Below are positions 12,075 to 40,434 of a DNA stretch of 64,000 nt, in pieces (the first letter of the stretch is position 1; every line of letters begins with the position of its first letter). Both the position numbers and the translations under genes were made by a program. Under the pieces are notes generated by a model. That model worked only from the letters and a program-made list of their open reading frames with translations. It had not been told where the DNA came from and ran no database searches. Source of the stretch: a virus; the IMG/VR virus record IMGVR_UViG_3300045988_100778, positions 32,001-96,000 of that record, one strand, 5' to 3'.

Positions 12075-12091
12075 AGAAGGAGGATAATGTT

Positions 12092-12858: not shown

Positions 12859-12869
12859 ATTGATTTTGT

Positions 12870-19217: not shown

Positions 19218-19255
19218 TAATTATTTCGTATTTTTGAAAACGATAAGAAAAGATT

Positions 19256-20032: not shown

Positions 20033-20046
20033 AAGGAGGATAAAGG

Positions 20047-20964: not shown

Positions 20965-20976
20965 ATATATTCAAAA

Positions 20977-23900: not shown

Positions 23901-26900
23901 AATAGCTTCTTTGGAAGGTACGATGTTGACAGTGCAGCCGAATGTGACACGTGATGCACAGCCGAGAACTTTCTATGTGGATGTGACGATAACGACTCCG
24001 GTAAGCCAGGTGACTGTAAAGATAACTGCTGAACAGAAAGCTGCTCTGAACTTCAATCCGGTTAAGGACGGAATTGTCGTTTCGGTAAAAAATATGTACA
24101 ATGATAATGTACGGGAATATACGACGAACGCGGCAGGAAAGATATTTCCGGAAGTGATGTTGGGTATTGACTATCAGTTGACAATAAAGGAGAAAGGTTT
24201 CTACGAGAACAACGGCTTGCTGATTAAGAACTGGGGCTTCGGTGCGAGTGTACCTACACTGATGGAAATAACGGCTTCAAAAAGGCTTGAATTGAGAGTA
24301 AAACAGCAGAATACCCTAAGACCGCTTGAAAATGCGACTATAAAGGTGTCCGGAATGTCACTGCCTCAAACCGTTACGTCCGGAAGTGATGGTTCGGCAA
24401 GAGTGTACATTTCACCTATTGCAATGAGCTATGAGTGTACAGTAACAGACCATACGAAAAAGACTGGAACATTCACACCCCCGTTGTCGGCTGATTATAT
24501 GGATATAATCATGGGTTATGCTGCAATGACATTCAGTCTGACATTAACAGCAAGTAACCCCTATTCCAAGGCGGCAGAAAGTTGTCCGGTAACGGTTACG
24601 AGTGCATGGAGCGGAACATCTTCACAATCATATAGTTTTTCTGGAACAACGGATGCAAGCGGACAATTGACATCACAAGGAAATGGAAATTTCAATATAC
24701 CGCCTGGAAATTATACGATAACCTATGGAGGTGGAAACAGTAATTTCGACGGTAAGACAGAAAATATCTATCTGCCTACGGACAAGACGCATTCAGCAGT
24801 ATTAACAAGAAGAACGAAATCAGTCACATTCACGGTAAAGGAAATAATACCCTCTATTTCGACTACAGCATCAAATCCGGTAAAGACAGGTCTTGTGCTT
24901 GCATGCTATTACAACGACAATAGTACATCTTCGGGTGCGAATGTAACGACGAATGCAAGCGGACAATTTACAAAAACAGTGTATGCAGGAATTGCAGAAC
25001 GTTTCCAGGTGCAACCAATAGGATTCTATTCTGGAAACGGTGCAATAGCTACAGTCAATTATAAAGATGCAAACACAAAAGACCTTGTATATACATGTTC
25101 AAAGAGAATTCCGGTATATATCACATCCAATCTGTATGGTGAGTTAAGTGGCGCATCAGTGACGTTCAACGGAATGTCTGTGAACCAGACAGGAACGACC
25201 AATACGGACGGGATAGTGCAAATGTACATATCTCCGGTAAATATGTCTTACAGTGTAAGCAAGCAGCATTACAATACCAAGACTGGGAATTTCAAGCCTA
25301 CCGGAACAGAAACAAGAATGGATATTGAATTGGAGGCGAAGGAGTACCCGGTCACTTTCCATGTGTCAACACAAGGAGTTTTGCCACCGGACGGAATTTT
25401 GGTACGTGTGACAAACAACGCATTGCCGGACATTGTATTTGAGGGCGAGACGAATGTGGAAGGAACGATAGTCATGCCGAATGTTCCGGTAGGAGAATAC
25501 ACCTATGATGTTCTTGCAGGTGAGGTTTCATCCGACACATTCTTCCATCCTCAAAGTGAAAGTGGTACAGTGTTGGATGTAGAAGTGCAATATGAATTGA
25601 TTAACGCAGGTATTCAAGTTTCGGAGGTGTATGGTACGGCAGGAAGGGCGTATCTGTCAAATCAGACTATTACAATGACTTCCAAGGCAGGAACGATAAA
25701 GCTTACTTTGGATGAGAACGGTTATACCAATCAGTTATTAATAAAGGGATTGGAATACACGTTTACGACTGATTCATACCCGGCTTTTTATAGCAACCCG
25801 ACACAATCCTATACATGGACCGAAGACGGTGTGATATGGCCGTTCAACTTGAATGTGACCTCAAAGATAACGGTCAATGTAAAGGATGTATATGTGAAAA
25901 ACAATATCCAGGGAGTAACGGTAGCTTACAACGAACAGATAGTGACGACGGATGCAAGCGGTAACGCTTCATTGTTCCGGTCAGCACTGACAAAGGACTA
26001 TTCTTTGGATAAAGAGGATTATAGTACAGTAAATGGAACCATTGCACCTACCACGGCTTCACCACTCAATGTCACGATGTTGAGAAACAAACATGTAGTG
26101 ACGGTACAGCAGTATGAAGTAATACCAGGTGGTGCGAGTGTAATTTTGGACGGTGGTTATAATTTTACTCTTAATTATACATCAGCAGCAGGAAACGGAA
26201 CTATTAGTAGTGGTACAAATACATTTGAGGCATATATCGGCATTCCTATCACATTTGCAATAGTAGCAGAGAACAGAAGGGTATTTTATAGTAATCCAAC
26301 TCAAACCCATACATTTACATCGGCAGGTGAGAAATGGAACATGAATCTTACTTGTGCGAAACAGATAACCGTAAATGTGAAAGACAATGTGCCTGGCGCG
26401 AATGTACAGGGAGCTACGATAAACTATTTTACACAGACAAAAACGACGGATGCGAGCGGAAACGCAGTCTTTTATTGGAGTGGTTCAGACCCACGTAATA
26501 TATCAGTAAGTGCTTCAAATCTGGAATCTTATACCGGACAGATAGCTTACAATTCACCAAATCCGTTCAATGTTGTAATGACACGTGCAGCCAATCCGGT
26601 TACACTTGTAGTAAGAGAAATAACGCCAGCACAAACAACTTATTATCAGAACTTACAGATAAAATACACGGTAGGAAGTGCAACCGGAACACTTACTACA
26701 AATGCGAACGGTGCAGTGACATTCAATGGATATATAGGTACGGAAATGACGTTTACGGTAGTGGGACATCCGGAATTTTACAGCAACCCGACACAGAAAC
26801 ACACCTATACAGCCGCCAATCAGTCATGGACTATGGATTTGACGGTAACAGCAAAGATAACGATTAATGTCAAATCGAATGTACCGAGCGGAACAAATTT

Positions 26901-29900
26901 GAGTAGAGCTACCGTATCATATTTTCATCAGACAGGGACAACGGACAATAGCGGTAATGTATCATTGTATAGGAGTTCTGTAACAAGAAATGTAGATATT
27001 ACAGCGACATATCACGGTAATTATAGAGGCAGTATAACGTCAGACACCGCGTCTCCGTTCAACGCGGTAATGACGCGTTCAACCGCGACAGTAAGTCTTG
27101 GAGTGAGTGAAGTTGTTCGGGTTACTCCTAAATACATGCTCGAAATCACTACGGATGCAAGTTCTGCTGTAACTCCTAGATTAGGTGGCTTCTATTTTGG
27201 TACACCAACAGCAGCAAATAAGGAGTTTGTGGCGTATTTTAGAGCAAAGATTCCGGCTGATAGAAAGCTTATTTTTGCAAGTAATGCAACAGGTGACAAC
27301 CCTATAAGAAAATGGGTTAATTCAAATGACGGAAAAGGAACAGGAGGATGGTACACTTATGCCTACTATGTAAGATGCGGTTCTACTGGAAGGTTTTCAA
27401 CAACCAATTTTTTCTATATAGAGGGTGGAAGTAGACCGATTACATGGTATCTCGAAATGGCAACGGTATTCGACATAACCGGAAGCAATGTTCAGAATAA
27501 ATCGGATGCCGAGATTTTAAGTAAGTGTACTTTTGATAGAATGTTGTCTGGCAATAAAGACTTTTTGTTCAATGAAGGCTCGAACAGAATAAGATGGTAC
27601 AATAATTCTAATACAAATGCTGTAACAGTGACAAGAAAGGCGGCTTCTGGAACAGACACGTTTAATTTCACGATGGCAACTTATGCGTCTATGAAGATGA
27701 ATTTCAGTCCGGCAGCTTCTACAAGTCCTTTGACACTTGATACAAACGGTAATGTGTCTTTTGTATGCTATTTAGGTACGCCAGTAACATTCACACCGAC
27801 AACAAGAGCTAATTATTACAGTAATCCAAATACTGCACTGACTTATACAGCAGCAGGACAGTTCCAGGGAATATATCTGATTTGTAACCAAAAGATAACC
27901 ATTAATACAGTAGCGAATATCTACAATACAAGTAATGCACTTGCAGGAACGATAACCTATTTCGGACAGACACTTCCGTCTGGAGGAAGCTTCTATAGAA
28001 GCGGATTAGACAGACAAATGACCGCCACGGCACAGTATTTCAACAACTACGTAGGAACAGTTACCGCCACACAGACATCACCCTATACAGTGACGATGAA
28101 CAGGACGACAAGAACAGTAACATTGATTGTTAGGGAATCAGTAGGTAGCAATGAATATACATTGAGTAATGCGGTGATAGTAAGAAGTGTTCCGTCTACT
28201 TCAAATGCTCCGGCAGGAGAAATAACACTGGACGCAAACGGAAAGAAAACGAATACTGTATATGCAGGTATAAGCTACACCTATACACCAAAGAATTACG
28301 CAAGCTATTACAGCAATGCAAGCCAGGGTCATACATGGACGAGTGAAAACGAGCAATGGATTATGACATTGAATGTGACGGCACGTCTGACATTCAACAT
28401 AAAGAGTTCTAATTATGGGACAAATATAAGTGGAGTATCATGTTCCTATTTAGGACAGACTGGAACGACTGATTCCAGTGGTAACTGGACTGTATACAGA
28501 AGTGGTATAAGTAGAAGCTACTCATTCTCGAAAACAAATTACAATGCGTTATCCGGTACATTATCGGCAGCACAAGCAAGTCCGTTGAACTTGAAAATGA
28601 GTGAGACAAGTTCTTCTATCACTATAACAATAAAGGACTATTATCAGAGTGCCGTAAAAGGAAATGCGAACGGATGTCCGGTAACGCTGACGAACAAGAG
28701 CCTTTCTTCTATCACGTTCACGGGAACGACAAACAGTAGCGGACAGGTGAGTTTCGGACCCATGATAGCAGGTTCATATACATTGTCATGGGGTGGAGGA
28801 ACAAGTTATTGGGTAAATGGAAGTACCACGATAACAATGCCTACAGCAACAACTACACAGAATGCTGTAAGATTGACGAAGATTGTAGGTAATGTATTTT
28901 ATTTCCAAACACCAGCTACAGGAACGGCATTCAAATATTGGGCCGTAAATACTTTATTGAAGCCAGTATATACCACTGGAGGAGTGGCGACAACAGTAAC
29001 TTTGGTAAAATCGGGTGCGACATATTATGATATAGGAAACTACACGTACATTGCAGGTATAGCAACGACAATAAGTACGGCAGTAGCGACATATTTCAGA
29101 ACCGGAAGTTCTACCAACACTGCTTCCGTATATTCTGTCACTCCTACGTACAACTTTAACAATATACCGGGTGTCACAAGTTCAGCGCCTTTATGTTCGT
29201 ATGCGATAAAGGGTATTGTAGTGACTGTACAGAACAGCTATACAAATGCGGCTGTAAATGGAGCCACAATAAAGATGTATGGTATAAACGGTAGTAATGT
29301 TGTTGGAGGCGCAGGAGATGGTGCAGTACAGACTGTAACGACAAACAGTGCAGGACAGGCGACAGTATATATATCTGGACTGACAAACAGATACATAGTA
29401 AGTGCGACAAGATACGTGACATTAAACACCACCAACACGAACACCTCTAACTTTACAATCAAGCTGGTACCGTCGGAAGTGACAATAACAATAAACGTAA
29501 ACAACGCGAGTACAGGTTCAAGAGTAGGAAGTGGTGTAATAGTGAAGCTGTCAAGTAACAACACCAGCACGACATATAGCGGCACTACAAACTCGTCCGG
29601 ACAGGTGGTACTGAAGATAAAGCCGGGCAATTATTGGTGGGAAGCAGGAGGTAGCACGACCTGGGGAGGAAACGGAACAGGAACATGGAATTATCCGAAC
29701 CGTTCCACTACCTCAATCTCTCTCATCAAAGACCAGTCCATAACAATAGAGGCTCTAAAGGTAGGGGTGTGGGTTGATAGTGGAAGTGTGTATTTTGGAT
29801 TTAAAAATAACGAAAGTTTTTATACTGGTATAAATAGAGAAAATGGAGGGTCTGATTATATAGCTCATATCGGCAGTAGTCAAGCATTTATGATGAATAT

Positions 29901-31257
29901 ACCGTCTGATGTAAATACTTCAAATTATACGGTAAAAAAATTCTTATATTCATTTTCAAGACCTGGAATTGCTGCTCCATTTATAAATGCTTCTGTAATA
30001 ACAACTTCTTCCAATGGTTCTTTTCAATATAATATCGGAACTGACTTTAGTTCAAGTGAAGTCTTAATGGCAGATTTTCTTTATCTGTCTCTTTGGGGTG
30101 AAGCTTCTTATAATTACACTTTTGTAATGTATAGTGTAACAAGATATTCATTAGCGGCTTATTATTGTCAAATAAGAATTTTAAAACAGACTGGTCAAAT
30201 GCAACAATCTACATATTTTTTGCAAGAAGTTAGTTATGATGATTTGCCATACATAAAAGATATTTTAAATAATTTTTGTTACAAGAATTATTACGTTCCT
30301 TTATTGAATTATGGAGAAAACCAGGATGATAATTATATTTATATAGTAACGGGAATGGATTGTTTCGAATCTACTGATTATGTAATAAGTTATTCTATAG
30401 ATTATCAGAATACACCTGGGAGTCTTTGGAGCAGAAACCGTCTTCAAATTAGTGGTAATTCGAGAGTAAGTTCTGGTGCTGTAAAGAGATTCTTGTTTAC
30501 ACAAAGTAGTCACGAACTTTCCGTACTGGTATATGGTAAAAGAAATGATGTAAATAATAAATGCCATGCTGCTGTGTTATCGTTTAAAAGTTCAGAATGG
30601 AGTCATATAAGAAGTGGTTCAATCGCCAATAATGTTTGGTCTGTATATGACAATTTCCCGGCTGCATTTACTGACAAAATGGGTAATAATATGTGGGTTT
30701 CAAGTAATCTGAAATGGATGTTTGCTGTTTTGTATGGAACAACAGACAAACCGTATGGAAAGGGCCTCGTTACTGTAAAGAGTGCAACACCTATTATTGG
30801 GAAAACTGGCTGGTCTTTAACTACTTATTATATAGATGATGATTCAACATTGGAAATACGAAATGCAGTTGCTAATAAATACGTTCTTGATATTATTTTC
30901 AATAGCACTGACTATAAGATGATTGTATTATGTAACAGTCTGATAGGTTCTGGATTAGACCAAGATACTTATTATTCTTTTATCAGTCCAGATTATTTAT
31001 ATTGCTTTGTTTATAACGGAAAGAAATGGATGGAATTTTCAAAAGAGAGTGTAGGAATGAGTACGTTGTGGAATAGATATGATAATTATAAGACAATACC
31101 TGGCGGTGGAACGTTTGTCGATTACAAACCTTATTTTAATGTTATGGGTGTTACTGGTATATATGATAGTAACAGAAATATTTCTTTTGTCTATCCAGCA
31201 AAATATTCAACTTATGAACCAACAGCTTATGAATATAGTCTGACATTTGGTGATTGA
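20977..31257 (+). CDS. giant baseplate-J domain / repeat-array tail fibre fusion (3426 aa)
   Basis: N-terminal ~390 aa match the Baseplate_J pattern (..ATGDYLDKSAALFGVSPR.., ..AAIGGRDYEDDETFRNRI..). More than two dozen prealbumin/carboxypeptidase-regulatory-like repeats follow (..GATIKINGSTYLTDKEGIAIISLPNGTYEYTV..). Distinct C-terminal domain ends LTFGD. Confidence 0.8.
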   Translation: MITKTANTIANLKNLWIEMFLNKTDRVSNIADGSVLNGVAYGTAKVAQKAIKDIAIVEAQIFPKSATGDYLDKSAALFGVSPRKEALGSSTYVRVFAEPGTHYEVGTKFISKNGVQFTVDQPFTVDKSGYGYISVRSVITGSATNVEANSITEVSPRPLTHIECTNEYAAIGGRDYEDDETFRNRIINYNNKLSTDTMEGWTQIFQDLDPRILKVMNVGLGEDGKTHIYLVTQNGSFFTDDELEELLTKATPYFGLTELDLQGNTLGIVIENAKWMYVGGEEGVDFRVELSPNAVIADVRKNIQIAMTKYLDFRFWEAGKKVEWDDLLEVVKTAEGVKYVPDEYFFPYFDEEVPLNMLPRIKGFRMRDLEGNILYDSGSSLSNIFYPAGESDIYKGSQSVIASQKYLCSFTVTNTKNVAVPGAYITIGNKVIITDSNGTANILLENGEYTYILSKTNWTQKTGEFVVLNNPIYININDFIATPYPVTFTVYEGEAPLQGVTVTTSVYTSETDDKGQAVINLEPGTYEYKLEKSGFQTIESVFTVENQPVDIFQRMFLTKMNVNFAVIDRNRSIYIPEANITINDIKEKTDNEGQASMGLQTGKYEMRVAKEDYQDLVKEIEIVGEDPNCILVEMTAIPYAIKFTVLDSATHMVLEGATIKINGSTYLTDKEGIAIISLPNGTYEYTVFKSGYMSVNDFVVVEGSEVSKIVELEQAFYTFRLTVRDIENGNYIQGAELQINGETRVTNVNGVASVTLGNGDYEYTVTHRNYKRYTGTVTIKDQDVPETIYLELRDTVITYTATDAITKAPISGVYIELINKGTGIKVDSGYTNDIGVLQLGAEAGEYTWNATHRYYDAVENQSITLEKLKDIDLPFTMTRREIEPEVDVIENIPGVSGDATTVRFSGENTAETLSNDSYYYIVHTPENFVIPNKGVTFDLMEHVKTFRRAEIGGEDEPYDFASGGAELVFNVSNDEIASLEGTMLTVQPNVTRDAQPRTFYVDVTITTPVSQVTVKITAEQKAALNFNPVKDGIVVSVKNMYNDNVREYTTNAAGKIFPEVMLGIDYQLTIKEKGFYENNGLLIKNWGFGASVPTLMEITASKRLELRVKQQNTLRPLENATIKVSGMSLPQTVTSGSDGSARVYISPIAMSYECTVTDHTKKTGTFTPPLSADYMDIIMGYAAMTFSLTLTASNPYSKAAESCPVTVTSAWSGTSSQSYSFSGTTDASGQLTSQGNGNFNIPPGNYTITYGGGNSNFDGKTENIYLPTDKTHSAVLTRRTKSVTFTVKEIIPSISTTASNPVKTGLVLACYYNDNSTSSGANVTTNASGQFTKTVYAGIAERFQVQPIGFYSGNGAIATVNYKDANTKDLVYTCSKRIPVYITSNLYGELSGASVTFNGMSVNQTGTTNTDGIVQMYISPVNMSYSVSKQHYNTKTGNFKPTGTETRMDIELEAKEYPVTFHVSTQGVLPPDGILVRVTNNALPDIVFEGETNVEGTIVMPNVPVGEYTYDVLAGEVSSDTFFHPQSESGTVLDVEVQYELINAGIQVSEVYGTAGRAYLSNQTITMTSKAGTIKLTLDENGYTNQLLIKGLEYTFTTDSYPAFYSNPTQSYTWTEDGVIWPFNLNVTSKITVNVKDVYVKNNIQGVTVAYNEQIVTTDASGNASLFRSALTKDYSLDKEDYSTVNGTIAPTTASPLNVTMLRNKHVVTVQQYEVIPGGASVILDGGYNFTLNYTSAAGNGTISSGTNTFEAYIGIPITFAIVAENRRVFYSNPTQTHTFTSAGEKWNMNLTCAKQITVNVKDNVPGANVQGATINYFTQTKTTDASGNAVFYWSGSDPRNISVSASNLESYTGQIAYNSPNPFNVVMTRAANPVTLVVREITPAQTTYYQNLQIKYTVGSATGTLTTNANGAVTFNGYIGTEMTFTVVGHPEFYSNPTQKHTYTAANQSWTMDLTVTAKITINVKSNVPSGTNLSRATVSYFHQTGTTDNSGNVSLYRSSVTRNVDITATYHGNYRGSITSDTASPFNAVMTRSTATVSLGVSEVVRVTPKYMLEITTDASSAVTPRLGGFYFGTPTAANKEFVAYFRAKIPADRKLIFASNATGDNPIRKWVNSNDGKGTGGWYTYAYYVRCGSTGRFSTTNFFYIEGGSRPITWYLEMATVFDITGSNVQNKSDAEILSKCTFDRMLSGNKDFLFNEGSNRIRWYNNSNTNAVTVTRKAASGTDTFNFTMATYASMKMNFSPAASTSPLTLDTNGNVSFVCYLGTPVTFTPTTRANYYSNPNTALTYTAAGQFQGIYLICNQKITINTVANIYNTSNALAGTITYFGQTLPSGGSFYRSGLDRQMTATAQYFNNYVGTVTATQTSPYTVTMNRTTRTVTLIVRESVGSNEYTLSNAVIVRSVPSTSNAPAGEITLDANGKKTNTVYAGISYTYTPKNYASYYSNASQGHTWTSENEQWIMTLNVTARLTFNIKSSNYGTNISGVSCSYLGQTGTTDSSGNWTVYRSGISRSYSFSKTNYNALSGTLSAAQASPLNLKMSETSSSITITIKDYYQSAVKGNANGCPVTLTNKSLSSITFTGTTNSSGQVSFGPMIAGSYTLSWGGGTSYWVNGSTTITMPTATTTQNAVRLTKIVGNVFYFQTPATGTAFKYWAVNTLLKPVYTTGGVATTVTLVKSGATYYDIGNYTYIAGIATTISTAVATYFRTGSSTNTASVYSVTPTYNFNNIPGVTSSAPLCSYAIKGIVVTVQNSYTNAAVNGATIKMYGINGSNVVGGAGDGAVQTVTTNSAGQATVYISGLTNRYIVSATRYVTLNTTNTNTSNFTIKLVPSEVTITINVNNASTGSRVGSGVIVKLSSNNTSTTYSGTTNSSGQVVLKIKPGNYWWEAGGSTTWGGNGTGTWNYPNRSTTSISLIKDQSITIEALKVGVWVDSGSVYFGFKNNESFYTGINRENGGSDYIAHIGSSQAFMMNIPSDVNTSNYTVKKFLYSFSRPGIAAPFINASVITTSSNGSFQYNIGTDFSSSEVLMADFLYLSLWGEASYNYTFVMYSVTRYSLAAYYCQIRILKQTGQMQQSTYFLQEVSYDDLPYIKDILNNFCYKNYYVPLLNYGENQDDNYIYIVTGMDCFESTDYVISYSIDYQNTPGSLWSRNRLQISGNSRVSSGAVKRFLFTQSSHELSVLVYGKRNDVNNKCHAAVLSFKSSEWSHIRSGSIANNVWSVYDNFPAAFTDKMGNNMWVSSNLKWMFAVLYGTTDKPYGKGLVTVKSATPIIGKTGWSLTTYYIDDDSTLEIRNAVANKYVLDIIFNSTDYKMIVLCNSLIGSGLDQDTYYSFISPDYLYCFVYNGKKWMEFSKESVGMSTLWNRYDNYKTIPGGGTFVDYKPYFNVMGVTGIYDSNRNISFVYPAKYSTYEPTAYEYSLTFGD
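22190..29696 (+). repeat. array of ~60-90-aa beta-sandwich (CarboxypepD_reg-like) coding repeats
   Basis: Recurring pattern V.V.....G..TD..G.A...L..G.Y.Y.....Y, read directly from the translation. Confidence 0.7.
29697..29774 (+). repeat. inverted repeat, left arm (IR-L), inside the giant fibre ORF
   Basis: Checked base by base: identical to the reverse complement of 32831-32908; encodes NRSTTSISLIKDQSITIEALKVGVWV. Confidence 0.95.
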
Positions 31258-31262
31258 TTTAA

Positions 31263-31320
31263 TAAAGAGTAACTATATACCTAAACATTCTTGATGTAAA
31301 TGGTATATAGTTACTCTTTA
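31263..31320. terminator. bidirectional terminator between the two convergent fibre cassettes
   Basis: 19-bp perfect stem TAAAGAGTAACTATATACC/GGTATATAGTTACTCTTTA (31263-31281 / 31302-31320), 20-nt loop. Confidence 0.7.
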
Positions 31321-31341
31321 ATTAATATGAACACTTATTTA

Positions 31342-32907
31342 TTAGTCTCCGAAAGTCAGTTTAGCGTAATAAGCTGTCGTATTTTCGTTATATGAAGGGA
31401 AGGAATAACTCATATCCCAAGAACCAAGATAATTAGGATTGACATTAAAGAATGGTTTGTATTTTGCACCAGAACTTCCAGAGGATATATATTTATTCCA
31501 GAAATTAGTAAATCCTACTGTACTATAAGGTATATTTACCCATTTTTTACCATTATACATAAATGTAAATAAATGAGTTGGATGAATACCTTCTATATAT
31601 TGGTCTAATGTCTTTCCTCCTTGTGCTCCTACTGTATCGTTACAGAGAACAATCATTTTATTTTCATTCTTATTAAACTGAATTTCAAGTACATAATAAT
31701 TTGCAAGTGTATTTCTTAAATCTGCTGTAGAGCTATCGTTAATGGAATAAGTAGCTATCTCATTCCAACCAATATTTACGCTAAAAAGTGAATTTGAACT
31801 TGTAACTGTATTAATACCTTTCCCTATTCCGTAATTCCCCCTTTTGCAATACATCAGTGTCTTCATATCTGTTGTTACCCAAGCATTCAAACCAAAATCA
31901 TCTGTAATTGCAGAAGGAATATTATTGTAAAAAAACCAAAAATTATTTCCTTGATTATCATCTATATAATTCCATGTAGGAGCACCTCTAAATATAAATA
32001 TCCCAACCATATTAATTCCTCCAGGGTTTGATGTAGCAGATGAATCTGGGCCGAAACCTAATATTATTAATATTCTATTTTTATAATCAATATGTAGTTT
32101 TTTATAAAAAAGGATTTTGAATACTTTTGAAACTGTCACCGAAGAATTTATGTCGAATTGATGACCTGTTGTACCGCTACCTATGCTCCATGAGTTAATT
32201 TTAAATCTTACCAGATTGATTGCTGAATTATATATCGGTGTAATATAACAGTTATTATATGAATATTCATTATATATAATATCTGATTCGTCTCTTGTAA
32301 AAAGTTGTGTGATAGAATTGCGTATAGAATAATTATTGCTAAAATTAAATATCCAATTATCTTCTTGGCCAAAAATCTCAAATTTGAGATAATTTAGACT
32401 TCCACGTCTTACATTAAATTCCATCCATGTTATTCTATATGCAGAAGAATTACTGAGAAAGGTTCCTACAATATTTTGAAAATCACCGTCAGAACTTTTA
32501 CTGAGATACAAGCTTCCTTGCATATAATAATATCCCGACAATATGTTATCACTAAAGACATTAGGAAGTCCTGGAACCAAAACACTCGTACGTGTATATA
32601 AAAAATTATATGGGTCTATTCCCAAAGAAATAATTGTTTTACCTTGCGGAACATCTTGGTTTACAGAGCTGTCATTTGTATTGTAAGTTAAGACCATAGA
32701 ACAAGAAGAACTTGGATATCTTTTATTTTCTGTTACTTCTGAACTTGTTATATTGTTGTAATACACTAACCCAGTATATGAATTTTTTCTTGTAACGGCG
32801 ACAGCATCTCCACCACTCCATTCATCACTCACCCACACCCCTACCTTTAGAGCCTCTATTGTTATGGACTGGTCTTTGATGAGAGAGATTGAGGTAGTGG
32901 AACGGTT
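31342..32907 (-). CDS. start-less alternative fibre C-terminal cassette (silent in this orientation)
   Basis: Reverse-strand frame is open from the IR edge. A TAG at 32910-32908 closes it upstream and there is no ATG in the IR-encoded part. The C-terminal ~200 aa are paralogous to the giant ORF C-terminus (..NKMIVLCN.., ..YNGKKW.., ..LTFGD). Confidence 0.8.
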   Translation of the reverse strand, partial: NRSTTSISLIKDQSITIEALKVGVWVSDEWSGGDAVAVTRKNSYTGLVYYNNITSSEVTENKRYPSSSCSMVLTYNTNDSSVNQDVPQGKTIISLGIDPYNFLYTRTSVLVPGLPNVFSDNILSGYYYMQGSLYLSKSSDGDFQNIVGTFLSNSSAYRITWMEFNVRRGSLNYLKFEIFGQEDNWIFNFSNNYSIRNSITQLFTRDESDIIYNEYSYNNCYITPIYNSAINLVRFKINSWSIGSGTTGHQFDINSSVTVSKVFKILFYKKLHIDYKNRILIILGFGPDSSATSNPGGINMVGIFIFRGAPTWNYIDDNQGNNFWFFYNNIPSAITDDFGLNAWVTTDMKTLMYCKRGNYGIGKGINTVTSSNSLFSVNIGWNEIATYSINDSSTADLRNTLANYYVLEIQFNKNENKMIVLCNDTVGAQGGKTLDQYIEGIHPTHLFTFMYNGKKWVNIPYSTVGFTNFWNKYISSGSSGAKYKPFFNVNPNYLGSWDMSYSFPSYNENTTAYYAKLTFGD

Positions 32908-32908
32908 C
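32831..32908 (-). repeat. inverted repeat, right arm (IR-R)
   Basis: Reverse complement identical to 29697-29774 over 78 nt; mismatches immediately outside both ends. Confidence 0.95.
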
Positions 32909-32988
32909 TACAGTATTTTTCGTCGTGTTTGTTTTCGTAATATCCAAAATTAATCGTATTTTTACCGTGCAATTAATTGTAGTTCAAC

Positions 32989-35900
32989 ATGGAAGTAAAA
33001 CAGAAGAAAGAAAACCCGTGTGGGGGATTATTTTTACCCCAGTCCACACCTATATATGATAATTTGCCTTTCAGTCGTTTTTTCGAGGAAAACGACAAGG
33101 AAGTAATACGGTGGGCAGAAAATGTACTTGAAAAACTGGAAGGAAGGGGAATTTTGCCTACATTCCTAAAGAAGAAAGAGAACGAGGATTTCCGTGCATT
33201 CTGGGGAACCATAACCCATATATTCGCTTTGATAGTTCTGTATGCAAGACAATACAAAAAGATAGACACGAATCAGATTTTGTTCGAGATGTTTATTCAG
33301 AACAGAGGTCTTGTTACTAACATGGTGGACAGCCAGGAACAGATGAAATACCTATTTTATAATTACCTGGAAGAATATTCAAAGCGTGGAAGACTTGACA
33401 TCATAAGCAAGGAAGGCGAGATATTGGGAGAATTGTTGCGACTGATAAGATACAATTCGTTGGACGAGTTTATATTTGCCTTGTTGAGACCGGAAGCTAC
33501 GGGGTGGGCGATGGGACATAGTTCGCCTACATGTGACCGGACGAATACGGTAATGAATGTATCAAAAGCGTATGAATATACAAAAGGAGTAGAGGATTTG
33601 AATAATTATCCTCTATTGATACCGGAAAGTATAAGTATAACGCAGGACGAAAACGGGAATGATGGAGAGATATTCAACGCTATGACATTTTTTGGCAACC
33701 AAGCCGTGGGTATAGACGGAAGGGTGGATTTGGACAAGCTTATAATTATAGACCCGAACCTATCCTATGAAATATCATTGCAAGTAAAGGTGTCGGCTAC
33801 AGACAATGAAAACCTAAAGTTTGGAGTAGCAGGCTATGAAACGGTAGATGGCGAGCCATTGCCTATGGGGATATTGGAAAACGGACAGATAACCGGAAGC
33901 TCTCTATGGTTCCACGAAAACGAATATTTAGACATAAAGAACGAGGGCATGTATTACTACATAAAAGGAATACTGCTGTCAACGAACGAGAAGTTTTTGA
34001 ACGCACCTACGCTTAATTTCCCGTCTGGACGTGCTTTGTCGATAATGCCGGGAATGAAGTATATCGCACCTATATTTATCCAGGAAAGAACGGTCGGGAA
34101 TCACCCGTATGTATATATATACGATTTTCATGTGAAACCCTTATATCTGCCGTTTTCACAAGGATATTTGGGTGAACGCGATATTATAGCCGCCTACTAC
34201 AAGAACAACGCATATCAGAGACAGTTCACCGTAGAGACCTTCCTAAAAAATTACCTTGTTGGATATAAGAACATATTCGGCAGTGAATTGATACGTCCTT
34301 ATGTAGGAGAGGAAGAATATCAGATATTGTTCAAGGTATTTTCAAACCGGAATAAGTATATACCCAATGCGAAGATAACGGTAAACGGGGAAGAACTGAT
34401 AACGGACGTTAACGGTGAGGCGAAGATAACGCTGCCGCGCGGACAATGGTATTACGAGGTGGAAGCAGAAAACTTTGAAAGCGTGGAAAACACCTTATTG
34501 GTGGACAAGGATGCTGTAGAATATGTACAGTTAATGGGAGCCGCCTATGAACGGGTGGTTACGTTCTTTGTGCGCAACAAGGAGACAAAAGACTGGATGC
34601 AGAACGTGAAAGTGTCCTTTGCAGGAAAGGTGCAATATACCGGAAGCAACGGTATAGCGACATTCGAGGTATTTCCTGGTATATATGAATATGTGGCAGA
34701 ATACGAGGACTATTATACAGTAAGAAGAAATGCTGAAATAGTGGATTCTACCAATATCGAAATCGAGATGGAAAAGATACCTTACTATAACGTGACTTTC
34801 CGTATAAGGGATGGTGTGGAACCAGTATCGGGCGCATCCGTATTGGTGACGGGTGAGGGAATTCCTAATCAGACCGGAAGTTCTAATGCGCAGGGTCTTG
34901 CAACCGGGTTCGTATATCCGGCAGGAACGTATCATTATAAGGTTGTTAAGGAAGAATATGTGACGGTAGAAAATGACTTCACAATATACGGCAATGCCGT
35001 TATTGACGTGCAGTTCCACCCTATACCGAAATATAAGATAAATTTTATTGTGAGAAGCAACGGCTTGCCAGTGTCAAAGGCAGACGTGACGTTCAATGGA
35101 ACGACGCTGCAAACGGCAAGTAACGGAGTTGTGACGTTCATAGACATAGCAGGGGAATATAACTGGAAGGTGACAAAGACCGAATTCTATGCAAAGGACG
35201 GTACCGTAGAAGTTATCGACCAGGACGTGACGATAGAAGTTGACTTGGTGCAGATGGGTTACTTGATTGACTTCTATGTGACGGACGAGGACAACACTCC
35301 ATTAGACGATGCTTTGGTAACGATAGGAACGGAAGCGATAAGCACGAGTGGAGGACAAGCGCAGTTTGTCCGGATATCGGGCGGCTATAACTGGACTGTA
35401 CAGAAAGAAGGATATTATACCAAGCAGGGTGTAGTGACGGTGAACGGGGAGAACAAGCGCGTGGACGTGCAATTGAAGCTTGTCACCTATGATATCATCT
35501 TTACTGTGAGGATGAATAATCAGCCAGTAAGGAACCAGCCCGTTGTGCTTGGAGTGGGAGAAGGAGAACAGACAGTCAATACGGATGGGAGCGGAAACGC
35601 GGTATTTAACCGTGTACCAGGCAGTTACCCGTGGAGTGTAAATAAAGAGGGGTACGAACCGAGAACTGGAACGGCAGTTTTGATAAACCAGCCTTTAGCC
35701 ATAACGGTAGACCTTGTTAAGCAGACCGGAAAACTGACGGTAAAAGTTCTTGACGTAGAGACAGAACAGCCTATACAGAATGCAGTGGTGACGATAAACG
35801 GGGAGACGAGATATTCCAACAACAACGGTATTGCTGCAAGTTGGACGTTAGAACTTGGTGTATGGGAATGGAGTGCCTCACAGCAAGACTATAACCCAGC

Positions 35901-38457
35901 AAAGGGTAATGTCAACATAAAGCCAGGAGAAAACGAGTACACCATAAAAATGAGCGAGAAGTCCGCGGTTCCGTTCAACGTGACATTCAACGCTTCGATA
36001 GGGGCTGTCCAGGCTTCGGGAGCCAAAATAAACATTGTGGGACAGACAGAAGAACTCGTAACAAATGAGCTTGGTTTGGTATCTACACAATTGTTTTCGG
36101 GCACATACGACTATGTGGCAACTTATCCCTATTGCTATGACGTGGTGAACTCGTTTACCGTGTACAATTCAGACACCCGTGTTCCTATCAACTTTACCGT
36201 AAAGAGGGTGAATGTGAGAATACAGGTTGTTAATGGTAGCAATATAGGTATAAGCGGTGCACAGGTGACGTTTAACGGAATGACACAGTATTCCGATGGG
36301 CAGGGATATACGACCTTCAATGTGGAGGCAGGAAGTTCTGGTACGGCTACGGCAAGCAAGTTGCCTCAATACAACGAGAACAGTACCTATGTGACTGTAG
36401 GAGAATACGATACAAGTGCGACGATAGTTCTTGGCGTAAATACCTATAAAGTTATTTTTGACGTGGTGGACGAGAAAGGGATATCCATAAGAGGGGTACG
36501 TATTGTATGCGGAGGTACGGCAAAGAACACGGATGGAGCCGGGCGTGCGGTATTCGGAACATACGTACCGCCTCAGACATTAAGCTGGCAGGCGTCAAAA
36601 GCCGGATATCAGAGCCAGAACGGTTCTGTGAGCATAAGTAATAGCGACGAATATGTTAATGTCGTAATGACGCGCAACAAATGCCAGGTTACATATAACG
36701 TGCGTACAAAAAGCGGTTCTCCTATTTCTGGCGTAACTGTGGAAGACAACATAAGTTCGGGCGTGACAAGTTCGAGCGGCACCGTATCATGGATGGTACC
36801 ATGTAACGATACCTATGCGTGGATAGCGACAAGTCAGAATTACTTTACAGAGAGCGGAAGTTACACGGTAGGGCCGGAAGAGTTCAGCAAGACGATTGAC
36901 ATAATAATGGAAGACGGTGCGGTACTGGAAGTAAGTGTGTCAAATGGCACGAACATAGTGTTGCCCGTACTTAATACCTCCTCTACCGGGCTGAATAATC
37001 TTCGTGTTAAATGGGGAGATGGTGAGCAGACAGTAGGAACAAGTTCGCATACCTACAGTTCCGGAGGAACAAAGATAATATTGTTCGACTTTAACGGGAT
37101 GTCGGCCAATTTATCATGGAGTGCAAACGGATTTTCAAGTTTCCAGAATTGTTTGACAAGAGTAATCAAGTGGTTTACCGAAAATGTGAGAACGTCGTGG
37201 GGAAAGGGAGCCTTCCAGGATTGCAGCAGTCTTGAATCGGTTGTAAGCTGGACTACAAGTCTTATGAGCGGTTCGGCAGATTCGTTCTTTGATGGGTGCA
37301 GTAGTTTAAGAAGTGTTCCGTCTGGATTATTTGAATTTGTGACAAGTGGTACATTCGTAAAAACATTTAAGGATAGCGGATTGAATGGTTCTGTGAACTT
37401 GTCAAGTGTGCTTGCAGGGAATTCGATAAGTGATTACTCTTACTGTTTTTGGAGATGTAAGAATATTTCTTCTGTATCTGGACAGTTAAGAACATCGGGT
37501 AATGGAACATCTTTGGATTATATGTTTGCGGAATGCAGCGGAATGTCAAGTATAAGCAATGATATAGGCGCGATAAATATAAGTCATTGTGATTACATGT
37601 TTTCCAATTGCTCCAATTTACAATCACCTTGCAGAATAACGTTCAAGTTTTTTTCTGGACGTACACAATCGGCAAGTAGTTTTTGTTGGTCTTCGGGTAT
37701 ATCATCGTTGCCGAGCAATCTGTTTTCCGGGACTATATATTCATTGTCCCTTAATAAAGCGTTTTCCGGTTGTACCAATTTGTCAAGTATAAGTTCGGGT
37801 GCATTTAATTATACAGTAAGTTCCGGTACACAATGTGTTGATATGTTCTATGGTTGTACAAGCTTGCTGAATGTAAGCGGTGTAGTAATTCCGGATATCA
37901 GAAGCGCGGCCAACATGTTTTTGAATAGTGGCTTGACTACCATAACATCTTCTCTTTTTTCCGATTCTCCTAATTGTGCTTCTTATGCGTATTGCTTTAG
38001 TGGATGTAGGAATTTGAGAACAGCAGGTTCACAAGGAAATCCGATTACTCCATCGAATCATTCAGTGACGGTAGATATTGACGGAATGTTTGAGAATTGT
38101 TCCAATTTGCTGACGGCTGAATATGCTTTCGGTGATGTGACTGTAAATAAACTTGGACCTACCAGAACTGATAATAGTTATATAGAATCGGGGGTACTGA
38201 AATATATAACCAGTTGCACAAATACATTTAGCGGTTGCTCAAATATGACATCTCAACCGAGATGGGATTGTATAGTAGCCGGAGTAAAATTGCCGTCAGC
38301 TTATATGCCTCTGTTTTATTATTTTAAGAGAATATTCCAACCATATCAATTCGGTTTCCCGGATGTCGACAGTATATCCAAAAGCGGATGTTTCAGAGGA
38401 TGTACAAAGATGAATGGTTACGACCAATATATTAGTGCTTATCCAGAATGGTTCTAA
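32989..38457 (+). CDS. second large tail fibre: beta-sandwich repeats, PKD-like domain, BspA/DUF285-type leucine-rich repeats
   Basis: 1822 aa; about 11 CarboxypepD_reg-like repeats (34318-36915); VKWGDGEQTVGTSSHTYSSGG is PKD-like; C-terminal repeats FQDCSSLESV, FDGCSSLRSV, FAECSGMSSI, FSNCSNLQS, FSGCTNLSSI, FENCSNLLTA. Confidence 0.7.
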   Translation: MEVKQKKENPCGGLFLPQSTPIYDNLPFSRFFEENDKEVIRWAENVLEKLEGRGILPTFLKKKENEDFRAFWGTITHIFALIVLYARQYKKIDTNQILFEMFIQNRGLVTNMVDSQEQMKYLFYNYLEEYSKRGRLDIISKEGEILGELLRLIRYNSLDEFIFALLRPEATGWAMGHSSPTCDRTNTVMNVSKAYEYTKGVEDLNNYPLLIPESISITQDENGNDGEIFNAMTFFGNQAVGIDGRVDLDKLIIIDPNLSYEISLQVKVSATDNENLKFGVAGYETVDGEPLPMGILENGQITGSSLWFHENEYLDIKNEGMYYYIKGILLSTNEKFLNAPTLNFPSGRALSIMPGMKYIAPIFIQERTVGNHPYVYIYDFHVKPLYLPFSQGYLGERDIIAAYYKNNAYQRQFTVETFLKNYLVGYKNIFGSELIRPYVGEEEYQILFKVFSNRNKYIPNAKITVNGEELITDVNGEAKITLPRGQWYYEVEAENFESVENTLLVDKDAVEYVQLMGAAYERVVTFFVRNKETKDWMQNVKVSFAGKVQYTGSNGIATFEVFPGIYEYVAEYEDYYTVRRNAEIVDSTNIEIEMEKIPYYNVTFRIRDGVEPVSGASVLVTGEGIPNQTGSSNAQGLATGFVYPAGTYHYKVVKEEYVTVENDFTIYGNAVIDVQFHPIPKYKINFIVRSNGLPVSKADVTFNGTTLQTASNGVVTFIDIAGEYNWKVTKTEFYAKDGTVEVIDQDVTIEVDLVQMGYLIDFYVTDEDNTPLDDALVTIGTEAISTSGGQAQFVRISGGYNWTVQKEGYYTKQGVVTVNGENKRVDVQLKLVTYDIIFTVRMNNQPVRNQPVVLGVGEGEQTVNTDGSGNAVFNRVPGSYPWSVNKEGYEPRTGTAVLINQPLAITVDLVKQTGKLTVKVLDVETEQPIQNAVVTINGETRYSNNNGIAASWTLELGVWEWSASQQDYNPAKGNVNIKPGENEYTIKMSEKSAVPFNVTFNASIGAVQASGAKINIVGQTEELVTNELGLVSTQLFSGTYDYVATYPYCYDVVNSFTVYNSDTRVPINFTVKRVNVRIQVVNGSNIGISGAQVTFNGMTQYSDGQGYTTFNVEAGSSGTATASKLPQYNENSTYVTVGEYDTSATIVLGVNTYKVIFDVVDEKGISIRGVRIVCGGTAKNTDGAGRAVFGTYVPPQTLSWQASKAGYQSQNGSVSISNSDEYVNVVMTRNKCQVTYNVRTKSGSPISGVTVEDNISSGVTSSSGTVSWMVPCNDTYAWIATSQNYFTESGSYTVGPEEFSKTIDIIMEDGAVLEVSVSNGTNIVLPVLNTSSTGLNNLRVKWGDGEQTVGTSSHTYSSGGTKIILFDFNGMSANLSWSANGFSSFQNCLTRVIKWFTENVRTSWGKGAFQDCSSLESVVSWTTSLMSGSADSFFDGCSSLRSVPSGLFEFVTSGTFVKTFKDSGLNGSVNLSSVLAGNSISDYSYCFWRCKNISSVSGQLRTSGNGTSLDYMFAECSGMSSISNDIGAINISHCDYMFSNCSNLQSPCRITFKFFSGRTQSASSFCWSSGISSLPSNLFSGTIYSLSLNKAFSGCTNLSSISSGAFNYTVSSGTQCVDMFYGCTSLLNVSGVVIPDIRSAANMFLNSGLTTITSSLFSDSPNCASYAYCFSGCRNLRTAGSQGNPITPSNHSVTVDIDGMFENCSNLLTAEYAFGDVTVNKLGPTRTDNSYIESGVLKYITSCTNTFSGCSNMTSQPRWDCIVAGVKLPSAYMPLFYYFKRIFQPYQFGFPDVDSISKSGCFRGCTKMNGYDQYISAYPEWF

Positions 38458-38483
38458 TTTTGTAAATAAAAATTTATAAATAT

Positions 38484-39320
38484 ATGGCGCAGATAAATGT
38501 TAACAGAAACACTTTTTTAGAAAAGGAAGAAGTGATGAACATGCAGTCTTTCCTACAGAATTCCCTGCTTGGAAAGATTCTAATTGCCGGAAGTTACACA
38601 TTCGGTATAGTGACAAATAACCCTACAAAATTCAAGTCCGATTTTGAAACCGTGGACACCTTTATAGATAACAAGGCGTTTGAAGTACAGCAGGGAACAC
38701 AAGGAGGAACGGTAAGGATATTGCCGGGTATGGCGGTAAACTCATTGGGGCAGGTAATAAACATTGTCAACATATACGATAACTTTGCAATCCCGGCAGA
38801 CAGCGTGTATTACTGGCTAAAAATCGGGTATTCGACAAAGAATTACGAAAACGGATATGTGAGCATTAACCAGAAGGGTGTAGTGACCGGAACCGTGGAT
38901 TTTTCCGGTAAGGTTAGAGGACAGGCAGGGAAAACCCCGGTAGCGATAAAGTTTCTGAAGGACGACGGTTCACAGCCCCTAAATAATGGCGTATATGAGA
39001 TAGTCAATATAATAGATAACAAGAATATTGTATTAACGTCTGAATCCGATTTTGTTGCGGAAACAAATTTGCAGGTTGTGATACTGGGAACAGTGCCGCT
39101 TGGAAAGGTGTTTACGGATGCACAAATGGAAGGACTTTATACCTATGATTGGTTTACGTTGGGATTGGTGCAGGAAGTGACTTTGGAACAACCCCCTACC
39201 AAGTCGGTAAACGAGTTTTATATAGCAAGAGTGAGAAACAACGGTGGTACAGTCACGATTGACAATACGGCAAAAACGGAATATTGGTCTTTGGCAGGAA
39301 TGCCGAAACCGAAAGAATAA
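38484..39320 (+). CDS. hypothetical virion (baseplate/fibre-associated) protein
   Basis: 278-aa ORF after the fibre genes; no motif recognised. Confidence 0.35.
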   Translation: MAQINVNRNTFLEKEEVMNMQSFLQNSLLGKILIAGSYTFGIVTNNPTKFKSDFETVDTFIDNKAFEVQQGTQGGTVRILPGMAVNSLGQVINIVNIYDNFAIPADSVYYWLKIGYSTKNYENGYVSINQKGVVTGTVDFSGKVRGQAGKTPVAIKFLKDDGSQPLNNGVYEIVNIIDNKNIVLTSESDFVAETNLQVVILGTVPLGKVFTDAQMEGLYTYDWFTLGLVQEVTLEQPPTKSVNEFYIARVRNNGGTVTIDNTAKTEYWSLAGMPKPKE

Positions 39321-39334
39321 GAAAGGAGGAGAAA

Positions 39335-39895
39335 ATGAGACTACTATATACAGTAAGTTCCGGATATATGGCAGAACAGCAGAATGTTTCTTATTCGTTG
39401 GGTGGTTTTGCATCTTCTACGACAATACCTAACGACATGTTCGGTAATTTGTTTGATGAATTGAGTATAAACACAATAAGAAACGCGAGAAACGAATACA
39501 GGGCTATAGTGCTGCACAATGACAGCCAGGAGGTGGCAAAGGGTGTAAAGATATGGTTCGAGAACCCGGAAACAAATGTGTGTTCGTTCAAGGTGGGTGC
39601 CGTGGGAATGACGGAAGGTGAAGACGGAAGCCGATATATGGGGAGTACACCTAATATATACAGTAGACCCTATACAGTCCAGTTTTACGAGGCTACAGAA
39701 GAAAACCCGGTGTCTATCGGGGATATGCAGCCGGACCAGATGATAGGTATTTGGGTGGAAAGGAGTATAGACAAGGAAAAGGCTTTGGAAGAGTATAACA
39801 AAGTGGCAGAGAGGGATTTAGATACGGAAACGAGATATAAGCCTATTCAGAAGGAAACACAAGAAATGTTAAATATGCAATTTTATTGGGAATAA
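39335..39895 (+). CDS. hypothetical virion protein
   Basis: ATG 39335 (MRLLYTVSSG..) follows AGGAGGAGAAA and the previous stop; the ORF-track start at 39284 overlaps the upstream gene. Confidence 0.35.
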   Translation: MRLLYTVSSGYMAEQQNVSYSLGGFASSTTIPNDMFGNLFDELSINTIRNARNEYRAIVLHNDSQEVAKGVKIWFENPETNVCSFKVGAVGMTEGEDGSRYMGSTPNIYSRPYTVQFYEATEENPVSIGDMQPDQMIGIWVERSIDKEKALEEYNKVAERDLDTETRYKPIQKETQEMLNMQFYWE

Positions 39896-39899
39896 GTTA

Positions 39900-39937
39900 T
39901 TGCGTATGTCATAAACAAATATTATCTTTGTGGTGTG
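39900..39937 (+). promoter_or_regulatory. dispersed promoter/operator element, copy C (5'-truncated, diverged)
   Basis: TTGCGTATGTCATAAACAAATATTATCTTTGTGGTGTG; lacks the CATAAGCAC part. Confidence 0.5.
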
Positions 39938-40003
39938 ATTGATAAGGGAGCGTTAAAACTCCCTTTCTTAAGCTGGTTACACATAATAAAATATTATTTC
40001 AAA

Positions 40004-40273
40004 ATGAACAACATCGTAGAACTTAACGGATTGCAGGGTGTAAAGAGTGAAAAGGTTTACGCCTATTTTTCAACCGAACCGAAAGAGGTGCAGAATGCCC
40101 TGGAGCTTGGAATAGCATGTACTGGGGCTGATGATAACGGGGCGTACAACATTTATTTTGACGATGAAGAAAACATATGCTGTGAATACATGCAGCGTTG
40201 TGTCACGAAGGAGTTCAAGAAGGTGGAAACAATAGAAGAAGCTGTGTTGTGGATGGAGGGTTATTTTAGATGA
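40004..40273 (+). CDS. small hypothetical protein
   Basis: ATG 40004 (MNNIVELNG..); the ORF-track GTG 39935 lies inside promoter copy C. Confidence 0.4.
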   Translation: MNNIVELNGLQGVKSEKVYAYFSTEPKEVQNALELGIACTGADDNGAYNIYFDDEENICCEYMQRCVTKEFKKVETIEEAVLWMEGYFR

Positions 40274-40431
40274 AGACGCTAATTTTTGATGTGATGCTGA
40301 ACGAGCAATACATTCACACGTTCAAGTACAAGTACAATCCTTTGTTTCCTATCGAGGAGGAAGAGTTAAGGAAGTTTGTAGAAGAGAGATTGCCGACATT
40401 GAAAGGAAAGAGTTTTAAGATTTTGTTTTAG
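40270..40431 (+). CDS. small hypothetical protein (53 aa, not in the ORF track)
   Basis: ATGA overlap with the previous stop; translated by hand as MKTLIFDVMLNEQYIH..KILF. Confidence 0.3.
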   Translation: MKTLIFDVMLNEQYIHTFKYKYNPLFPIEEEELRKFVEERLPTLKGKSFKILF

Positions 40432-40434
40432 GAT

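Follow-up and report, generated by a model that had tools for sequence, protein, structure and literature searches.

An invertible two-cassette segment in the giant fibre gene of an uncultured gut phage, probably a host-range switch that works without a dedicated invertase

A 64,000-nucleotide stretch of viral DNA (IMG/VR record IMGVR_UViG_3300045988_100778, positions 32,001 to 96,000; hereafter the window, numbered from its first letter) carries a giant baseplate-fibre gene whose 3′ end lies inside a segment bounded by inverted repeats. We conclude that this segment, 29697-32908, is probably an invertible two-cassette host-range switch resembling the G segment of phage Mu, likely driven by homology and operating without a dedicated invertase. 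That the segment is a real and recurrent inversion switch is held with high confidence; given such a switch, flipping by homology has an even chance or slightly better. An initial annotation, made from the letters of the window, had proposed a silent cassette that could be expressed only as a fusion after inversion.

The segment is delimited by the single outstanding inverted repeat, two arms of 78 nucleotides (nt) at 29697-29774 and 32831-32908 that are 100% complementary and separated by 3056 nt. A 19-nt core of this repeat occurs exactly twice in the 64-kb window, as compared with 0.03 copies expected by chance. The left arm, on the plus strand, lies in frame within the giant gene and encodes a 26-residue adapter, NRSTTSISLIKDQSITIEALKVGVWV; the right arm, read on the minus strand, provides the second cassette with the identical adapter. 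On the minus strand the silent frame is closed by a TAG at 32910-32908 (...ctg TAG aac cgt tcc...), of which TA belongs to the fixed flank and only the last base, the G at 32908, to the repeat. The equivalent plus-strand copy reads ...tat CCG aac cgt tcc..., with proline in the place of the stop codon. Past the TAG the minus-strand frame is open for 521 codons, running through NRSTTSISLIKDQSITIEALKVGVWV into SDEWSGG... and on to the stop codon at 31342-31344. There is no methionine among the 26 adapter codons, and the start listed at 32838 in the table of open reading frames (ORFs) is a GTG inside the repeat that is a valine codon of the adapter in the expressed copy. The TAG and its CCG counterpart, the open frame and the in-repeat GTG had been described in the initial annotation, and each of these points held up. 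The same TAG closed the frame in 10 of the 10 silent-state IMG/VR loci.

Two other arguments of that annotation, from the position of the TAG and from the lack of a promoter, proved weaker than stated. Opening of the frame exactly at the repeat boundary holds for the silent flank found in the window (R1), but not for an alternative flank (R2), in which a TAA closes the frame seven codons upstream. Similarly, no sigma-70 promoter-like box lies upstream, but a perfect Bacteroidota −7 box, TAATTTTG (consensus TAnnTTTG), is present on the minus strand at 32952-32945. This box is within the fixed right flank (32909-32988) that separates the repeat from the next fibre gene, 35 nt upstream of the TAG, and it points into the silent cassette. 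TAnnTTTG boxes occur 74 times in the window against 67 expected, which is the level of chance; the box is missing from the R2 flank, and its chance expectation for the R1 interval is ∼5%. Even if it were active, there is no start codon there for it to serve. On the plus strand, many gene starts have a TAnnTTTG box ahead of them, at a distance of anything from a few bases to a few dozen (e.g. at 5615, 11460, 12395, 19229 and 38455, and likewise at 39923, 46701, 50237 and 55907). This placement is consistent with Bacteroidota-type promoters, though the total count is not above chance.

The giant gene itself is an ORF of 3426 residues (20977-31257, plus strand) that passes through the left arm. 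Its constant part (20977-29696) encodes an N-terminal Baseplate_J domain (residues 68-194; Pfam expectation value (E) 2e-16) followed by a long chain of CarboxypepD_reg (five stretches, E 1.8e-34), PEGA and Ig-like domains. Beyond the arm, the presently expressed head is cassette A (DSGSVYF..., 29775-31257, plus strand, stop codon included), and facing it on the minus strand is the silent head, cassette B (SDEWSGG..., 31342-32830, including the stop codon at 31342-31344). The two C-terminal domains are paralogous, as the initial annotation had it (BLASTP E 4e-46, 29% identity overall, highest over about the last 200 residues). Between the convergent stops lies an AT-rich hairpin of ∼24 bp (31257-31326; inverted repeat of 25 nt, 92%), with a folding energy of −33.2 kcal/mol as RNA (z = −6.5, none of 200 shuffled sequences being as good). 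It is likely to be a bidirectional terminator, and would lie between the cassettes in either orientation. The segment holds no ORF beyond the two cassettes, the rest being the hairpin.

An AlphaFold2 model of cassette B, built on an 18-sequence alignment, reached a predicted local distance difference test score of 73.7 and a predicted template modelling score of 0.81. Its best structural matches were beta-propellers (CyRPA, sialidases/neuraminidases and WD40-type proteins, with the receptor-binding protein of phage phi11 matched weakly), at template modelling scores (TM-scores) that were low, 0.3-0.5. Matches in a viral structure library were phage proteins annotated as T7-tail-fibre-N-terminal, sialidase or WD40/YVTN-containing. 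The model supports a propeller-like head for cassette B and nothing more specific. Both heads, of ∼495 residues each, appear to be beta-propeller-like and are presumably receptor-binding; we infer that the function of the segment is host-range or receptor switching.

Related natural genomes gave direct evidence for inversion. With cassette B as the query, IMG/VR yielded 22 loci of 94-97% identity, 19 of which could be classified by how far the frame extended upstream. In nine of the 19 (L004, L005, L007, L011, L012, L018, L019, L022 and L024) cassette B was fused in frame to the giant gene, the frame upstream of it continuing for 2,700 to more than 2,900 codons. In the other ten (L006, L008, L009, L010, L013, L015, L016, L017, L020 and L021) it was silent behind the same TAG as in the window. 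One of the fused loci, L004, corresponds to the window with an exact inversion of 29697-32908, at 98.9% identity and with collinear flanks by blastn: its positions 1-10077 match window 19163-29774 on the plus strand, 10000-13211 match 32908-29697 on the minus strand (98.9%), and 13134-20910 match 32831-40608, again on the plus strand. In a sister lineage with a 62-nt repeat, L345 and L346 are exact inversions of each other (98.3% identity). When 29697-32908 was inverted in silico, an ORF of 3428 residues resulted, with ..ALKVGVWV joined to SDEWSGG.. at the junction, and cassette A came to lie behind the same TAG. Together with the nine fused relatives, this upholds the proposal that the cassette is expressible as a fusion after inversion. 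Orientation was unrelated to relatedness: the fused locus L004 and the silent locus L017 have one repeat haplotype and one pair of cassettes in common.

The distribution of cassettes in the wider population was assessed by scanning metagenome contigs for the exact 19-nt core. This gave 63 stretches from ∼45 human-gut assemblies, mostly on contigs of 100-108 kb, whose arms were classed by their outer flank (constant region, L, or silent flank, R1 or R2) and by the first bases past the repeat. At least 10 cassette families were present across these assemblies, and each common family adjoined the constant region and the silent flanks at similar counts, about 1:1. Cassettes whose first 12 nt were GAGTGATGAATG were next to L seven times, R1 five times and R2 not at all; the corresponding counts were 7, 5 and 1 for GACGAACAGAAG, 4, 3 and 1 for TGAAAAAGATTA, and 6, 2 and 3 for GAGTGATGTAGA. 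Intact cassettes of 506-524 codons were found in 40 of 44 silent and 40 of 42 expressed positions, and cassette B was open over its full 521 codons in all 18 copies. There was no conserved start codon after the repeat across the different cassette families. The pairwise ratio of non-synonymous to synonymous substitution (dN/dS) among copies of cassette B was ∼0.85, a value such as diversifying pressure on a receptor-binding domain might produce. In two assemblies the expressed position, at the left arm, is defective, which may reflect errors or defective genomes: in L382 a G-to-A change turns the adapter TGG (Trp) into TGA, and in L373 the adapter runs into unrelated sequence that reaches a stop within three codons.

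The cassette family is confined to this phage group, since a profile search of 1.84 billion representative proteins yielded only 27 relatives. Most of these are ORFs of ∼480-500 residues, about 15 of them distinct clusters, and one is a fusion of 3417 residues. Megablast of 28500-34000 against GenBank phages gave no match, exact-protein look-ups of the 498-residue ORF and of P0001 gave none, and a scan of GTDB genomes gave only a chance match in a Sedimenticola metagenome-assembled genome. A protein search from one structural gene returned one distant unannotated match and nothing else, and full-text literature searches found no description of the switch or of the contigs that carry it.

Comparison of the arms revealed how they have evolved. 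Within one genome they differ at 0.85 positions per common 62 nt, as compared with 2.59 between genomes (permutation p < 1e-4), and in 14 of 26 genomes they are identical. Strain-specific, mostly synonymous single-nucleotide polymorphisms (SNPs) are common to both arms of a genome. The arms thus evolve in concert. This requires non-reciprocal homologous exchange, because conservative site-specific recombination homogenizes nothing outside its short overlap. Among genomes with mismatched arms (L008, L016/L020, L019, L348, L361, L382, L387, L390 and L396), two SNPs separated by 9 nt occurred in each of their four possible combinations. The length of the repeat varied among genomes from 62 to 87 nt, being 80-87 nt where the two cassettes begin alike and 62 nt with the different right flank of the sister lineage. 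Since L345 and L346 still invert with a 62-nt right arm, the outer 16 nt are not required. A palindrome at the outer edge, GAACCGTTC, was considered as a crossover site and rejected on the same grounds, since inversion persists in genomes in which these 16 nt are missing from the right arm. By inspection, the palindromes in the repeat are trivial (9-11 bp) and variable between strains, and synonymous variation extends across most of the repeat and affects the short palindrome TAGAGGCTCTA too.

The arms also mark the limits of exchange between lineages. Identity between the window and L007, of the sister lineage, is ∼71-73% in the constant region just upstream of the left arm. At the left arm it rises to 92-100%, keeps that level to the end of the segment, and drops to 48-76% immediately past the right arm. 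This jump at the arms indicates that the two-cassette module has been exchanged horizontally, with the arms as its boundaries or recombination handles. In the distal constant region (27200-29600) the comparison with L007 is a mosaic in which blocks of 56-72% identity alternate with blocks of 86-95% among the Ig-like repeats, a pattern suggesting that the repeated domains, too, recombine frequently.

The means of flipping, on which the initial annotation had nothing to say, is the unusual feature of the system. An enzyme that might flip the segment was sought with Pfam in the window ORFs of at least 100 residues and, for the remaining ∼42 kb of the genome, through IMG/VR contig 3300029501_000001 (L050, L147, L276, L213 and L094). 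No Phage_integrase, IS110-type or intact Resolvase domain was found in these ∼106 kb. Neither Resolvase nor HTH_7 was present in the window ORFs, and no recombinase lay beside the module in four other genomic contexts. An approximate Hin sequence used as query gave no match with phmmer or tblastn. A reverse transcriptase of a diversity-generating retroelement was also absent from the matches, which included only a weak RVT_3 within an RNase H protein, and the repeats are identical rather than adenine-mutated.

The sole Resolvase-like ORF, of 148 residues (L094:9553-9999, equivalent to L213:19441-19899), ends 1 nt before the homologue of window ORF 32-817. It is therefore placed just outside the start of the window, ∼30 kb from the segment and between two structural genes. 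It consists of an N-terminal HTH_17 and a partial Resolvase catalytic domain (profile positions 2-101 of 145), and it best matches an IS607-type transposase family in PHROG, relative to which it is cut short at profile position 153 of 201. In place of the YARVS of serine recombinases it reads NVIYARVMNKHN (YARVM), with methionine in place of the catalytic serine, as in 55 of its 57 homologues; in two more distant relatives checked (L137 and L144) a homologue was absent. We read this ORF as a dead remnant of an IS607-type TnpA and not as an invertase; it may be a domesticated DNA-binding remnant linked to the TnpB element described below. A further candidate, L147:18415-18747, was picked up as a Resolvase by a motif pattern and rejected as a spurious antisense ORF. 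The window contains a TnpB-only element of 1.3 kb at 5550-6871, with a TnpB ORF at 5627-6841 (OrfB_IS605 and Cas12f-like TNB domains). In L011, L012, L015 and L024 the element adjoins the equivalent of window 40540, so it is mobile within the phage lineage.

The phage does encode general recombination proteins: on the plus strand of the window, an SbcD-like phosphoesterase (58693-59721; Pfam Metallophos, E 8e-11), RecA (59721-60692; Pfam RecA, E 1e-74) and an SbcC-like protein (60674-62674; PHROG, E 1.6e-49), in addition to superfamily 1 (SF1) and superfamily 2 (SF2) helicases (UvrD and SNF2). RecA, SbcD and SbcC are candidates for homology-driven exchange at the repeat.

These observations can be combined as follows. 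The constant part of the giant gene ends in the 26-codon adapter, and an identical inverted copy of the adapter heads a second C-terminal domain that lacks promoter and start codon. Recombination between the 78-nt arms would flip the segment, so that the fibre ended in either cassette A or cassette B, with the unused cassette parked behind the stop codon of the flank and the shared hairpin terminator parting the two. The exchange could proceed via phage RecA/SbcCD, via host machinery, or via RecA-independent recombination as at the 85-bp repeat of the spnIII locus. We also advance, tentatively and at somewhat less than even chances, a broader form of this invertase-free switch, in which the 78-nt in-frame repeat is a ‘universal adapter’ kept identical by homologous exchange and serving both as the flip point within a genome and as a handle for module swaps between co-infecting phages. 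Such swaps would have a library of at least 10-15 beta-propeller heads in the population to draw on, and lineages whose neighbouring genes are only ∼73% identical would join in the exchange.

Several points weigh against the homology-driven reading. The concerted evolution of the arms demonstrates homologous exchange on them but is compatible with a trans-acting site-specific recombinase doing the flip; long repeats also surround the crossover sites of phage P1. One block of 19 nt, TCAAAGACCAGTCCATAAC, spans six codons and yet does not vary in 19 of 20 IMG/VR genomes; it might be a site recognized by a protein. The many phage ORFs that have no family assignment could conceal a novel recombinase. 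The genomes at hand include no near-identical pair of opposite orientation with heterozygous arms from which crossover points might be mapped. As to function, the receptor-binding role is taken from the position of the heads in the protein and from a fold of moderate confidence with TM-scores of 0.3-0.5. Orientation was called from short-read assemblies, in which a 78-nt inverted repeat creates graph ambiguity at k < 78, and the coexistence of both orientations in one clone or sample is presumed from the same assemblies.

The main alternative keeps the switch and assigns the flip to a site-specific recombinase acting in trans on a short core, either a host Bacteroidales invertase or an unrecognized phage protein, with the long repeat reflecting only a shared coding adapter and gene conversion. 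The invariance of TCAAAGACCAGTCCATAAC (19 of 20 genomes) across its six codons fits this explanation; in addition, Bacteroidales carry many invertases, and many of the phage ORFs match neither Pfam nor PHROG. It nevertheless has to accommodate the lack of an intact recombinase in ∼106 kb, or beside the module in any lineage examined, a core that by inspection has no extended dyad symmetry, synonymous variation through most of the repeat (TAGAGGCTCTA included) and the dispensability of the outer 16 nt. Moreover, a phage relying on a host-specific enzyme would lose the switch on changing host. We regard this alternative as a serious one, though unlikely. It is improbable that the orientation differences are instead old fixed rearrangements, or module swaps between lineages, with the second cassette a rarely used spare. 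Exchange of the whole segment between lineages does occur, and imports could explain some of the orientation diversity, but orientation is unrelated to relatedness, as the pair L004 and L017 illustrates with their common haplotype and cassettes. Every common cassette type is found in both positions at ∼1:1, silent copies are as intact as expressed ones, and the arms are homogenized within genomes.

Two further explanations were weighed. If the minus-strand ORF were a free-standing gene translated from GTG 32838, possibly transcribed from the −7-like box, and the repeat a remnant of duplication, the annotation of a ∼498-residue protein by gene callers in all databases would be accounted for, as would the TAnnTTTG box 35 nt upstream of the frame. 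However, this GTG is a valine codon of the shared adapter, identical in the expressed copy, nine loci carry this cassette as a fusion with the giant gene, and the cassette families have no conserved start after the repeat; the box, for its part, is not shared by the alternative flank type and has the ∼5% chance expectation given above. We consider a free-standing gene very unlikely. Least likely of all is an assembly artefact, in which the repeat collapses in the de Bruijn graph and is resolved at random from a single natural orientation. The 78-nt repeat is longer than common k-mer sizes, and several contigs do break in or near it (L009/L025, L386/L402, L351, L391 and L399). Reads of 100-150 nt span the repeat, though, and an unsupported path is unlikely to be chosen half the time across SPAdes, MEGAHIT and IMG assemblies. 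Both states also give intact designs, an in-frame fusion and a stop-closed spare, and the silent cassettes show no decay. The contig breaks were not used as a sign of within-sample mixtures, since k-mers shorter than the 78-nt repeat explain them equally well.

The nearest known systems are the G segment of Mu with its invertase Gin, the C segments of P1 and P7 with Cin, and e14 with Pin. As here, a constant 5′ fibre part lies outside, and opposed alternative 3′ parts lie inside, a segment bounded by inverted repeats; the repeat is in frame, and inversion splices a different C-terminus onto the fibre. Inversion of this type changes host range. Unlike the present segment, however, these systems have an adjacent serine invertase gene with a C-terminal helix-turn-helix, whereas no intact one was found here in ∼106 kb. 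Inversion in them takes place at crossover sites of 26-34 bp, dyad-symmetric around a 2-bp core, with the help of a Fis-dependent enhancer; the repeat here is 62-87 nt long. Each alternative there has its own assembly gene (U/U′), as compared with two head domains and a shared hairpin. The carrier also differs, being a 3426-residue Baseplate_J fusion in an uncultured, apparently non-temperate gut myovirus. Because it has neither an adjacent serine invertase nor paired assembly genes, the segment is not assigned to the Mu G/P1 C family.

In repeat architecture the segment resembles the spnIII (ivr/cod) hsdS locus of Streptococcus pneumoniae, which has 85-bp and 333-bp repeats: both have in-frame repeats of ∼80 bp in a specificity gene and start-less silent partial genes. 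Neither CreX, nor any other known site-specific recombinase, nor RecA is needed for inversion on the 85-bp repeat of spnIII (PMC6620402). This shows that no enzyme of its own is required for a repeat of such length to flip at per-cent frequencies. The pneumococcal locus differs in that it specifies a subunit of a bacterial restriction-modification system, encodes a tyrosine recombinase acting on its 15-bp repeat, and gives no evidence for a population-wide pool of exchangeable cassettes such as that found here.

In a survey of gene-altering programmed inversions, tail-fibre proteins were an enriched target class (Milman et al., 2023; PMC9881135). Those loci share with the present one a long expressed gene that faces a shorter, start-less partial paralogue across inverted repeats; they are located on bacterial chromosomes and in prophages and typically have a neighbouring recombinase, whereas this is a free phage genome without one. 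Both orientations among collinear genomes, and a start-less silent gene kept intact (40 of 44), are features of programmed inversion that were observed here. Anabaena cyanophages have an invertible region of ∼30 kb, for which recombination-prone replication is discussed as the cause, with tnpB in one of the phages (bioRxiv 10.64898/2026.02.14.705889). There too, the genomes occur as isomers produced by inversion between inverted repeats, with no link between orientation and phylogeny and with no dedicated recombinase identified, but the repeats are of 400-700 bp around a 30-kb block of whole genes and produce no alternative protein, as opposed to an in-frame splice within a fibre gene. The IncI shufflon (Rci) and the Min system of p15B likewise select alternative C-terminal adhesin or fibre segments by inversion. 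They do so with several segments, many short repeats (19 bp in the shufflon) and a dedicated recombinase (Rci, a tyrosine recombinase); here, each genome has exactly two arms and no Phage_integrase match, and the choice among at least 10 families exists at the level of the population. We would class the switch of this uncultured gut myovirus (∼105 kb) as a previously undescribed form of gene-altering programmed inversion; the principle itself is old.

In gene content (Toprim, DnaE, RecA, SbcD, SbcC, sheath, UvrD and SNF2) the phage matches the published description of the ‘Gratiaviridae’, which comprises DnaG primase, DnaE, SF1/SF2 helicases, SbcCD, RecA, a contractile sheath, a monophyletic large terminase subunit (TerL) and Bacteroides/Parabacteroides hosts (Benler et al., 2021; PMC8008677). 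Membership of the Flandersviridae was rejected, that family being defined with polA, whereas the phage has DnaE. A BACON-domain protein and the −7 boxes ahead of genes point to Bacteroidota hosts. The BACON-domain protein (L213:3228-4421) is encoded outside the window, as is a zeta-toxin-like kinase (L213:7445-8371; E 3e-34).

Other features of the genome lie apart from the switch. Directly downstream of it is a second fibre-like gene of the same build (32989-38457, plus strand; 1822 residues; Pfam CarboxypepD_reg, E 2.3e-33, and a weak DUF285). Inteins or Hint modules occur in the large terminase (9291-11405) and in the DnaE polymerase, which is split into two ORFs 4 nt apart (51821-53416 and 53421-55904); a LAGLIDADG intein is present in the portal protein outside the window (L213:4436-7435). 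In the sister lineage (∼105.7 kb, R2 flank; L001-L003, L404 and L405) the fibre module is followed directly by genes for 145, 131 and 80 residues, RNase T and terminase. In the window the same block is found ∼10 kb upstream of the giant fibre gene (6856-11405; cf. 38484-39895), so module order differs between the lineages.

Of uncultured gut phages it is above all the host range that is unknown, and human gut samples have yielded dozens of near-complete genomes of this lineage, of ∼105 kb each. One virion genotype would encode two receptor specificities, with the population sharing a library of at least 10, and a two-head switch could help to explain persistence alongside the phase-variable surfaces of Bacteroidales. 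Host prediction, strain tracking and assembly are complicated by the switch, contigs breaking at the repeat. Surveys of phase variation that start from the neighbourhood of recombinases will miss such loci if no dedicated enzyme is required for the flip. Fibre swaps, moreover, would be simple to engineer with the 78-nt adapter as a handle. The prevalence of the phage, its population-wide cassette library, the exchange of modules across lineages and the missing invertase make the system worth experiments.

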